The position numbers were made by a program, and so were the translations under genes. A stretch of 27,583 nucleotides of DNA from Candidatus Woesearchaeota archaeon (GTDB lineage Archaea > Nanobdellota > Nanobdellia > Pacearchaeales > GW2011-AR1), in contig CAZONG010000001.1 of the NCBI GenBank assembly GCA_964581315.1, positions 1-27,583 on the forward strand, given 5' to 3'. Below, piece after piece: positions 7,703 to 22,174 of the stretch. The notes below the pieces were generated by a model. The model was not told the DNA's origin. It was given only the letters and a program-made list of their open reading frames with translations, and made no database searches. The number at the start of each line of letters is the position of its first letter. The stretch's first letter is position 1.

Positions 7703-7773
7703 CGAGGACAGGGGGAATCGAACCCCCTCCGAGCGGTCTGGAGCCGCTAATTCTACCTTTAAACTATGTCCCC
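7703..7773 (-). tRNA. tRNA-Trp (CCA), 71 nt, no intron, 3' CCA not encoded
   Basis: Cloverleaf: GGGGACA/TGTCCTC acceptor, AGCGG-CT CCA GA-CCGCT anticodon arm, GGGGG-TTCGATT-CCCCC T arm, discriminator G. Confidence 0.95.
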
Positions 7774-21022: not shown

Positions 21023-21352
21023 TTATAAAAAATCAAAATAAGAAATTTTTTGAGTTACTAAAGAGTCTATTTCTGGTTGATAAGAATCAGCTTTTTTTTG
21101 GAATTCTTGTGCTTCTTTCATCAAATTTTTCATGTAGGGGGTGTCTCTAGAATTAAAATCTCTATGAAATTCATTAGCCCATTCCATATTACGCGAAACT
21201 GCTTCCAACCCATAATTTCTTTGTATTGTGGCAATTTGTTGTATTTTTTCATCTAATTTAGAATTATAATTATTCACATAAATTCCTCTGCCTACCCCTC
21301 CAAAAATAAAAATGGGCAAGAGTGTCTTTGCTAATGTTTTTCCGAATCCCAT
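21023..21352 (-). CDS. Membrane-anchored coiled-coil protein, paralogue of 12910..13386
   Basis: N-terminal anchor ending GGVGR; C-terminal EIDSLVTQKISYF. Confidence 0.75.
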   Translation of the reverse strand: MGFGKTLAKTLLPIFIFGGVGRGIYVNNYNSKLDEKIQQIATIQRNYGLEAVSRNMEWANEFHRDFNSRDTPYMKNLMKEAQEFQKKADSYQPEIDSLVTQKISYFDFL

Positions 21353-21414
21353 AATATTTATTTAAATATCGACTTTATAACTTTTTATGTACTCTGATTA
21401 GACATTTATTTAAC

Positions 21415-21452
21415 AAAAAACGAAGTGTGCTCCCGAAAGAGCACACTTTTTT
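21415..21452. terminator. Bidirectional intrinsic-terminator-like hairpin immediately 3' of tRNA-Tyr
   Basis: Perfect 10-bp stem AAGTGTGCTC (21423-21432) / GAGCACACTT (21439-21448), with T runs following on both strands. Confidence 0.7.
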
Positions 21453-21453
21453 A

Positions 21454-21622
21454 TCCACCCACCCAGAGTCGAACTGGGGATCTCCCGGGCACTGCTTGAT
21501 TTTATTCATAACGTGACCTACTGACTTTTGGGGTTTCATAGAATGTCGAATTGACTCGACTCTCCACCTTAGACATCTTTATTATCTACAGCCAGGCGCT
21601 CTAACCACTGAGCTATGGGTGG
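21454..21622 (-). tRNA. tRNA-Tyr (GTA) with a 96-nt intron at position 37/38
   Basis: 5' exon 21622-21586 (CCACCCA...CCTGG CT GTA G), 3' exon 21489-21454 (C CCGGG AGATC CCCAG TTCGACT CTGGG TGGGTGG A); C1-G72 and A73 are archaeal/eukaryotic Tyr identity elements. Confidence 0.93.
21490..21585 (-). other. tRNA-Tyr intron with a bulge-helix-bulge-type splice site
   Basis: Anticodon-loop CTGT (32-35) pairs with intron GCAG (-6..-3), flanked by 3-nt bulges AGA and TGC; the outer intron helix is weak. Confidence 0.85.
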
Positions 21623-21688
21623 TTATTAAAATTAAGGGGAAAATCTGTTTTTAAGTTTTTGGTATTGCCTTATTCAGATAATAAAATT

Positions 21689-22174
21689 TTAATCTACTTC
21701 ATTAACCCATCCTTTAAGTTCTTCCAAATTTTTATCAAAGTATTTTTCTGGAAGATTTTCTAAAAATTCTTTTGTTAGTCCTTTTATGTGTACATAACTT
21801 ACAAAGAAAAAGGAAAGTAATTGTGGTCCCGTCCCAGTCACCCTTTCATAACTTAAATGTGAAAGATAATCATTTATTCTTCCATAAAGTTCTCTTGAAT
21901 CTTTAGATGGTTTTAAATTCCAATTAGGAAGATAATGTATCGCACGAGGTTCTTTTGAAGGATTTTTATTCACTCCATAAAAAAATTCCCATAAATTTCG
22001 AATATGAGTAAAGAAAGCAACTGCAATAAAATCGGGAACTTGAATATAAGAAGAATTCGGATTTAGGTCTTTGGTAATCCTTATACATCCCCTTATCATC
22101 TTAAATTCATAATAGAAGTGACCATTTATTAAAGAAGTTTTAATCTCATCACTGGGTTCTTTTGATTTTGTCAT
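21689..22174 (-). CDS. Hypothetical protein, possibly HEPN-like
   Basis: FFTHIRNLWEFF and RINDYLSHLSYER; last gene of a three-gene unit with ATGA overlaps. The family call is weak. Confidence 0.65.
   Translation of the reverse strand: MTKSKEPSDEIKTSLINGHFYYEFKMIRGCIRITKDLNPNSSYIQVPDFIAVAFFTHIRNLWEFFYGVNKNPSKEPRAIHYLPNWNLKPSKDSRELYGRINDYLSHLSYERVTGTGPQLLSFFFVSYVHIKGLTKEFLENLPEKYFDKNLEELKGWVNEVD

Follow-up and report, generated by a model that had tools for sequence, protein, structure and literature searches.

Why does the only tRNA-Tyr gene found in the assembly of a Candidatus Woesearchaeota archaeon carry an intron of 96 nucleotides (nt), and what, if anything, does this intron encode or form? 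The gene lies on the reverse strand of a stretch of 27,583 nt from contig CAZONG010000001.1 (GenBank assembly GCA_964581315.1), hereafter called the window, and its features are listed in Table 1. An earlier note, made from the letters of the sequence, had pointed out that a 24-codon open reading frame (ORF) occupies almost the entire intron and had offered three explanations: a micropeptide translated from the excised intron, the remnant of a larger mobile or coding intron, or a structured RNA with its own function. The last of these now has strong support from a kink-turn hairpin and two exon-pairing helices with compensatory changes. The intron is an ordinary archaeal intron, spliced by proteins at the 37/38 site, and its unusual length is due to an embedded RNA module and not to coding. 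The purpose of this module is a more tentative matter, and the probability that it acts as a self-guide for pseudouridine formation at position 35 of its own tRNA is put here at about 0.45.

Homologous intron-bearing tRNA-Tyr genes were recovered by a DNA search of 40 relatives in approximately 21 genomes of the genus and family, where they are alignable over the full intron at 69-83% identity, and across 45 genomes the homologous introns range from 62 to 131 nt. They share a conserved core, CUAAGG-Y-G-GA, a hairpin and N-A-U-GA-A-RCC-Y, which fits a kink-turn exactly. Both GA dinucleotides are invariant in all 45 sequences, the bulge reads NAU in every one of them (with AU at L2-L3 throughout), and position 3n.3b is G.A in 43. 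On one side of the bulge, the C-stem consists of Watson-Crick pairs and continues into a hairpin that varies, and its closing (-1) pair is G-C in 26 sequences, U-A in 15 and C-G in 4. On the other side, five stacked pairs (3.3 to 7.7) separate the G.A tandem from the junction in 45 of 45 sequences, of which the one at position 3 is G.A, the following three are Watson-Crick and the one at position 7 is one of the isosteric combinations A.C (29), G.U (11), A-U (4) and G-C (1). Pairs 4-6 covary, the pairs of the stem compensate one another, and compensatory, two-sided change is seen at seven of the nine kink-turn pairs; on alignment A2, 91% of cells are paired, compared with 70% after shuffling and 30-54% when the partners are slid.

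The hairpin is also specific in its location. A covariance model of it, R1, finds one match in the genome of the window (21524-21572, E 3.5e-12) and has a single match in each of 52 genomes out of 151 sampled from the order, 50 of these 52 being among the 105 scored members of the family. All 29 of the matches that were fetched lie inside a tRNA-Tyr intron, and a recognisably similar hairpin occupies the same intron in two more distant families (L024 and L026). Kink-turns resembling Kt-7 are the kind of site that is bound by L7Ae. Kt-7 itself, from Haloarcula 23S rRNA, is the reference kink-turn and serves here as a lead only; the likeness presumably extends to the tandem sheared G.A pairs, the 3-nt bulge, A.G at 3b.3n and a non-canonical stem of the GG(N)GGA / GA-A-CC type, although Kt-7 is an architectural element of the ribosome and not part of a tRNA intron. 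On the strength of its conserved sequence and compensating pairs, the hairpin is very probably a kink-turn and an L7Ae site, and L7Ae is predicted to bind it.

The strand order of this kink-turn is that of an internal D′/C′ motif, and its bulged strand, AUGA, resembles the start of a C box, which brings to mind a box C/D guide for 2′-O-methylation such as that in the tRNA-Trp intron of Euryarchaeota. The chances of such a guide here are minimal. The earlier note was right that the intron holds no C/D boxes, as neither RUGAUGA nor CUGA occurs in it; terminal boxes are absent, and the 4-15 nt that separate the kink-turn stem from the splice site leave no room for them. No Rfam family matched the intron in a gathering scan of the window or in a permissive scan of 21380-21700. 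The proteins of this system are hardly represented either: fibrillarin scored above the cut-off in one of 25 related genomes but in none from the genus, and no Nop5 was found in the assembly of the organism itself (83% complete). Box C/D methylation may be wholly lost from this lineage.

The kink-turn hairpin is flanked by two strands that pair with the exon. Downstream, an intron segment with the consensus AGYCAG pairs with exon positions 33-28 to form a helix of 6-7 base pairs (bp), termed PS1. Its cells are paired in 92.6% of cases, against 16-54% when the partner is slid, and the variation at position 28 follows that of the intron: of 25 sequences with C28, 17 have G opposite, and of 20 with U28, 14 have A, while positions 29 and 32 also show changes matched by their partners. 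Upstream, helix P0 spans the 5′ splice site. A36 lies opposite an invariant U and G37 opposite a nearly invariant C, the first bases of the intron pair just upstream of that CU, and the helix reaches 2-6 bp in the homologues. Its third pair is A-U in 15 sequences, U-A in 12, G-C in 3 and C-G in 1, with 2 mismatches; pairs 3-4 are formed in 86% of cells compared with 60% after shuffling among species (a level that 0 of 2000 shuffles reach) and 21-58% when slid, and the first two pairs were recovered independently by RNAalifold. The loop of P0 tolerates insertions, namely 8 nt in the window and whole extra hairpins in four relatives. In three of these (L050, L054 and L064, from at least two genera), a module of approximately 45 nt with hairpins of its own, beginning GUAAGGAACCAAGGUUCCUUGAC and conserved in sequence, sits in the P0 loop upstream of the kink-turn and brings the intron to 126-131 nt; the fourth, L062, has a different hairpin at the same spot.

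This arrangement bears directly on the ORF, which runs from an ATG at 21576 to a TAA ending at 21502 and fills 75 of the 96 intron nt. The peptide quoted in the earlier note is indeed encoded there, and the intron at 21490-21585 (ARAGORN -i) and the internal GTCGA/TCGAC hairpin that it described are likewise present. Nevertheless, the ORF is almost certainly non-coding and a product of chance, because its ATG lies in an insertion specific to this genome and no homologue has the frame. The insertion, located in the loop and 3′ strand of P0, is missing even from the closest relative, at 83% identity. Conservation of the frame in the tRNA-Tyr introns of relatives had been suggested as a check, and its loss named as the outcome that speaks against the peptide; frame and start codon are kept in 0 of 44 homologous introns, and the longest ATG ORF among the others has 14 codons (45 distinct homologues). 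A 24-residue micropeptide made from the excised intron has in its favour that the ORF exists at such a length, given that an ATG ORF of at least 24 codons arises in only about 2% of shuffled introns when the sense strand is read and in 3.7% when either strand is allowed. Against it, the conserved bases of the intron change in compensating pairs and not at codon third positions, the ATG is itself base-paired inside P0, and the ORF passes through the kink-turn hairpin; the micropeptide is left with a negligible probability. The idea of a mobile or coding intron in decay found no support, as the intron has no family match and no relative holds a longer ORF. In the annotation of such genomes, ORFs inside these introns should not be called genes. 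The segment AAGGUGGA, which looks like a ribosome-binding site, was also considered as a Shine-Dalgarno sequence and rejected: it stands 25-30 nt from the sole conserved AUG, which is part of the bulged strand of the kink-turn, and its bases covary as a helix.

Together, the three helices define a fold of the precursor, fold M, in which PS1 replaces the anticodon stem, extended via C32 and U33, and is followed by the unpaired G34-U35, P0, an invariant A and the kink-turn stem, an N-A-N-A linker joining the latter to the intron strand of PS1. The unpaired G34-U35 thereby occupy a three-way junction, five pairs from the G.A tandem of the kink-turn. Over 41 sequences, 86.5% of its cells are paired, against 22-50% when slid and 77.1% when shuffled (0 of 500 shuffles reach the observed value), although shuffle statistics overstate the support, the genomes being related and so not independent; controls with slid partners and the diversity of pair types are sturdier evidence, and 11 of the 19 pairs show two-sided change. 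Fold M is probably real and under selection.

Splicing requires a different fold, fold S, in which positions 27-31 pair with 39-43, C32-U35 pair with GCAG of the intron, and A36, G37 and the first intron base are bulged. This is the archaeal bulge-helix-bulge: the anticodon stem provides the outer helix, and the splice sites lie in two bulges of 3 nt each, AG/A and UG/C, the slash marking the site. The 3′ strand of the central helix is GCAG in most homologues (38 of 45) and ACAG in a further 4, and the inner helix h′ beyond the 5′ bulge varies from 0 to 5 bp, with 1 bp in the window; A36, G37 and intron base 1 can be engaged in P0 instead. The spliced product folds into a cloverleaf (RNAalifold, 22 homologues). 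The assembly, of 596 kb in 71 contigs with approximately 30% G+C, yielded a single tRNA-Tyr gene (ARAGORN -i), missed by standard ARAGORN and by the Rfam tRNA model because of the intron, and it encodes a thermosome, the splicing endonuclease EndA (PF01974, E 5e-24) and the RtcB ligase (PF01139, E 1.5e-162); these traits mark its source as a small-genome archaeon of DPANN type.

Folds M and S are mutually exclusive, because fold S needs the anticodon stem and the central helix, both of which are occupied in fold M. By constrained folding they are nearly isoenergetic, with a median difference of -0.3 kcal/mol, and for the sequence of the window, folding free of constraints gives fold M as the minimum (-26.5 versus -22.1 kcal/mol); the constrained energies are approximate, the forced pairs in a few rows having come out below the unconstrained minimum. 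Several relatives, though not the window, have a second intron segment that mimics exon positions 27-32 and can swap partners between the folds.

Such a pair of folds could be explained by control of folding or of splicing time alone, with no base modification. The kink-turn, its L7Ae and the exon-pairing strands might hold the anticodon arm in a form that is not spliceable, or might help a long, AU-rich intron to reach the bulge-helix-bulge fold. This is the main rival to a guide function, and we consider it somewhat less probable than that function, though clearly more probable than the other alternatives. It draws on the same structural evidence, that is the covariation of kink-turn, PS1 and P0 and the exclusive folds of similar energy; it has no need for the components of a guide that are missing here (an ACA box, a lower stem and Gar1); and the intron copy of an exon strand that swaps partners in several species is reminiscent of an attenuator. 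It leaves unexplained, however, why exactly G34-U35 are unpaired, why the junction spacing is fixed at five pairs in 45 of 45 sequences, and why the module is confined to tRNA-Tyr, a tRNA in which an anticodon pseudouridine is linked to the intron in other lineages (PMC2651775). Moreover, most archaeal tRNA introns are spliced without any such device.

A guide function is the favoured reading. The topology of fold M, in which a 5′ guide strand, a kink-turn upper stem and a 3′ guide strand leave an unpaired uridine between the two guides, is that of the archaeal H/ACA pocket. In archaeal H/ACA RNAs the kink-turn stands 5-6 pairs above the pocket (PMC7991803, PMC2651775), and the five pairs between kink-turn and junction agree with this published rule in all the homologues. 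PS1 and P0 similarly form the bipartite guide expected beside the upper stem, but pair in cis, and the pocket would act in cis because the substrate is joined to the guide via the P0 loop. The fuller proposal, held with slightly more reserve than the self-guide function as such, is that, in this lineage, the tRNA-Tyr intron houses a guide of H/ACA type that lacks ACA, is complete in itself and acts in cis, and that the precursor then switches fold and is spliced. The nascent pre-tRNA would first take fold M, and the guide would act at this stage because formation of PS1 need not await transcription of the 3′ exon. L7Ae on the kink-turn would position Cbf5-Nop10, which would turn U35 into pseudouridine 35; the RNA would then refold to S, be cleaved by EndA and be ligated by RtcB. 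That Cbf5 is recruited, that U35 is the target and that the events follow in this order are predictions from structure and gene content.

A number of observations weigh against the self-guide. As a classic H/ACA guide, the intron fails on both the lower stem, which is absent, and the ACA/ANA box, expected 14-16 nt 3′ of the target position: no conserved box follows the 3′ guide, and the three bases after PS1 vary (UAG, UAA, ACA, AAG, AAA and others). The dinucleotide left unpaired by Watson-Crick pairing is G34-U35, whereas the canonical pocket would hold U35-A36. G34 stands opposite A in 43 of 45 sequences, which makes a G34.A pair possible, and such a pair together with opening of the A36-U pair would restore the canonical register. 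The junction also contains unpaired linkers, a single 5′ A and a 3′ N-A-N-A, and the inflation of the shuffle statistics noted above counts on the same side. Gar1, which atypical H/ACA ribonucleoproteins require in vitro (PMC11077068), was found in 0 of 25 related genomes with a Pfam model that also missed one of four archaeal controls. Lastly, the sole genome of the genus with TruD (G001) still keeps the module, and some families of the order seem to have neither a module detectable by R1 nor Pus7. The looser definition of an atypical H/ACA-like RNA, a kink-turn hairpin with guide flanks only (PMC11077068), describes the intron well.

Gene content is otherwise in keeping with such a function. 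Pus7 is the usual enzyme for pseudouridine 35, and TruD/Pus7 was detected in one of the 25 related genomes. L7Ae and Cbf5 genes are present in all 25 and Nop10 in 22. A test for correlation between the module and loss of Pus7 across the order has no power, because TruD is almost absent everywhere. In the genome of the window, the Cbf5 gene is divided between two contig ends (C61:2639-2776 and C45:58-252), which looks like fragmentation of the assembly rather than a broken gene.

The covariation with the exon also limits a further alternative, in which the excised intron, linear or circular, would persist as a stable L7Ae-bound small RNA acting in trans on other pre-tRNA-Tyr molecules or on another RNA. 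In archaea an intron can outlast its excision, and the guide in the tRNA-Trp intron has been reported to act in trans (PMC4090602); the guide strands are wholly or mostly intronic, and an L7Ae-bound kink-turn would protect the RNA. Yet half of P0 (A36 and G37) and the entire target strand of PS1 are exonic and covary with the intron of their own gene, so that any trans target would still be pre-tRNA-Tyr, and the excised intron likewise lacks a lower stem. A role in trans is accordingly regarded as improbable.

The proposed self-guide in cis has counterparts among known systems, each of which shares part of its design. In Sulfolobales and Aeropyrum with a defective Pus7, pseudouridine 35 is made by a stand-alone H/ACA small RNA (sRNA) that pairs with the anticodon arm and intron of pre-tRNA-Tyr, and deletion of this guide leads to loss of the modification and slowed growth; the named examples are Sso1, Sto1, Sac1, Mse2 and Ape7, together with sR115 of S. 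islandicus (PMC2651775, PMC11077068). The module described here resembles these guides in the kink-turn of its upper stem, fixed 5-6 pairs above the pocket, in a 3′ guide that has the 5′ strand of the anticodon arm as its partner and a 5′ guide that pairs across the boundary between anticodon and intron, in the target tRNA and anticodon region, and in the lack of a working Pus7. It differs in that the putative guide is part of the intron of the very tRNA that it would modify, to which a hairpin loop connects it, and in having neither lower stem nor ACA.

The missing elements have precedents as well. H/ACA RNAs devoid of the lower stem or ACA box function in vivo, and Cbf5 pseudouridylates the 5′ flank of such RNAs in cis, aided by a short 3′-guide pairing (PMC11077068). 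These atypical sRNAs, known from Pyrobaculum and from S. islandicus (sR109, sR136, sR148 and sR563), consist of a kink-turn hairpin and guide flanks only and have the same cis topology as that proposed for the intron, but they are free-standing and mainly directed at rRNA; proteins of Pyrococcus are able to use guides of this kind (PMC11077068). The closest analogue inside an intron is the box C/D guide of the euryarchaeal tRNA-Trp gene (PMC4090602), which also combines an L7Ae-binding guide (predicted in the present case) for the tRNA's own anticodon arm with a competition between guide/target pairing and the splicing fold; there, C/D boxes, fibrillarin and Nop5 direct 2′-O-methylation, whereas neither boxes nor proteins were found here. 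In eukaryotes, pseudouridine 35 of pre-tRNA-Tyr is formed by Pus7 in an intron-dependent manner (summarised in PMC2651775). The same nucleotide of the same tRNA is concerned and modification must likewise precede splicing, but the eukaryotic system uses a protein-only enzyme that reads a sequence motif. Full-text literature searches and a 2026 preprint on Asgard tRNA introns yielded no account of a tRNA-Tyr intron with a kink-turn or H/ACA-like module.

Table 1. Coordinates of the tRNA-Tyr gene, its splicing elements and the structures of its intron (window numbering; a slash within a sequence marks a splice site)
Feature	Position	Strand	Basis or remark
tRNA-Tyr(GUA) gene with intron	21454..21622	-	ARAGORN with intron search
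5′ exon, tRNA positions 1-37	21586..21622	-	
Anticodon G34 U35 A36	21589-21587	-	
Intron, 96 nt, canonical 37/38 site	21490..21585	-	ARAGORN -i
3′ exon, positions 38-73, CCA not encoded	21454..21489	-	
Bulge-helix-bulge central helix (4 bp), 3′ strand GCAG	21492..21495	-	Partner C32-U35 (21588-21591)
3′ bulge UG/C	21489-21491	-	
PS1 exon strand, positions 28-33, CUGGCU	21590..21595	-	
PS1 intron strand AGUCAG	21521..21526	-	Begins 11 nt past the GA of the bulged strand
P0 5′ strand: A36, G37, intron bases 1-3	21583..21587	-	Contains the 5′ splice site
P0 3′ strand UGUCU	21571..21575	-	Directly 5′ of the kink-turn stem
G34 and U35	21588..21589	-	Sole unpaired bases between PS1 and P0; U35 (21588) is the proposed target, on structural grounds
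Kink-turn hairpin	21531..21569	-	Invariant GA/GA, compensatory pairs, R1 match
Kink-turn non-bulged strand GGU-G-GA	GA at 21563-21564	-	
Kink-turn C-stem and hairpin	21541-21562	-	
Kink-turn bulge UAU and GA	21536-21540	-	Bulged strand continues A-ACC-C
24-codon ORF (MSKVESRV...)	21502..21576	-	Present, not conserved, judged chance
8-nt insertion AAAGATGT, this genome only	21573..21580	-	Alignments A1, A3

Several features surround the gene. Directly past the discriminator base, a hairpin rich in G+C (GUGUGCUC...GAGCACAC) and six consecutive T after it (21412-21450, reverse strand) resemble a terminator for the tRNA transcript, and a TATA-like AT-rich stretch lies just upstream of the gene at approximately 21623-21640. 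In two relatives, L023 (1415-1500) and L059, a partial copy of the 5′ half of tRNA-Tyr, comprising the acceptor and D arm, is found about 60-85 nt upstream of the complete gene; it may be the trace of a duplication or mark the border of an inserted element. The genome is present at subsurface or rock sites. Two metatranscriptome runs, from the study that was probably the source of the DNA, gave zero coverage of 21300-21800, where only DNA contigs were matched, and are uninformative on expression, splicing and circles.

Other tRNA genes of this genome also contain long introns. R1 matched no intron in the genome other than that of tRNA-Tyr, and a quick look at the precursor folds of tRNA-Glu(CUC) and tRNA-Ile(UAU) revealed no obvious kink-turn. 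The intron of tRNA-Glu(CUC) (contig C7:2635-2836, reverse strand) is 127 nt long and contains UGAUGA and two CUGA motifs, though no fibrillarin or Nop5 gene was found, and that of tRNA-Ile(UAU) (contig C25:2344-2536, reverse strand) measures 115 nt. In yeast, tRNA-Ile(UAU) is the other tRNA with intron-dependent pseudouridines in the anticodon. There are two tRNA-Trp genes in the genome, one in the window (7703-7773) and one on contig C21 (8326-8400).

If the self-guide proposal is true, its significance would reach beyond this locus. A review of 2014 called the tRNA-Trp box C/D intron a "unique example" of an archaeal tRNA intron encoding a modification unit for its own tRNA (PMC4090602), and the tRNA-Tyr intron would add a second, mechanistically different class of intron-encoded tRNA modification guide. 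It would link the intron-dependent pseudouridine 35 of eukaryotes, the stand-alone guides of Sulfolobales and the long tRNA-Tyr introns, so far unexplained, that occur in archaea with small genomes, and would provide a selective reason for the persistence of the intron in tRNA-Tyr. The module would represent a compact natural RNA switch between a modification-competent and a splicing-competent fold, and would show how an anticodon modification of functional importance could still be made from a minimal genome that has no Pus7.

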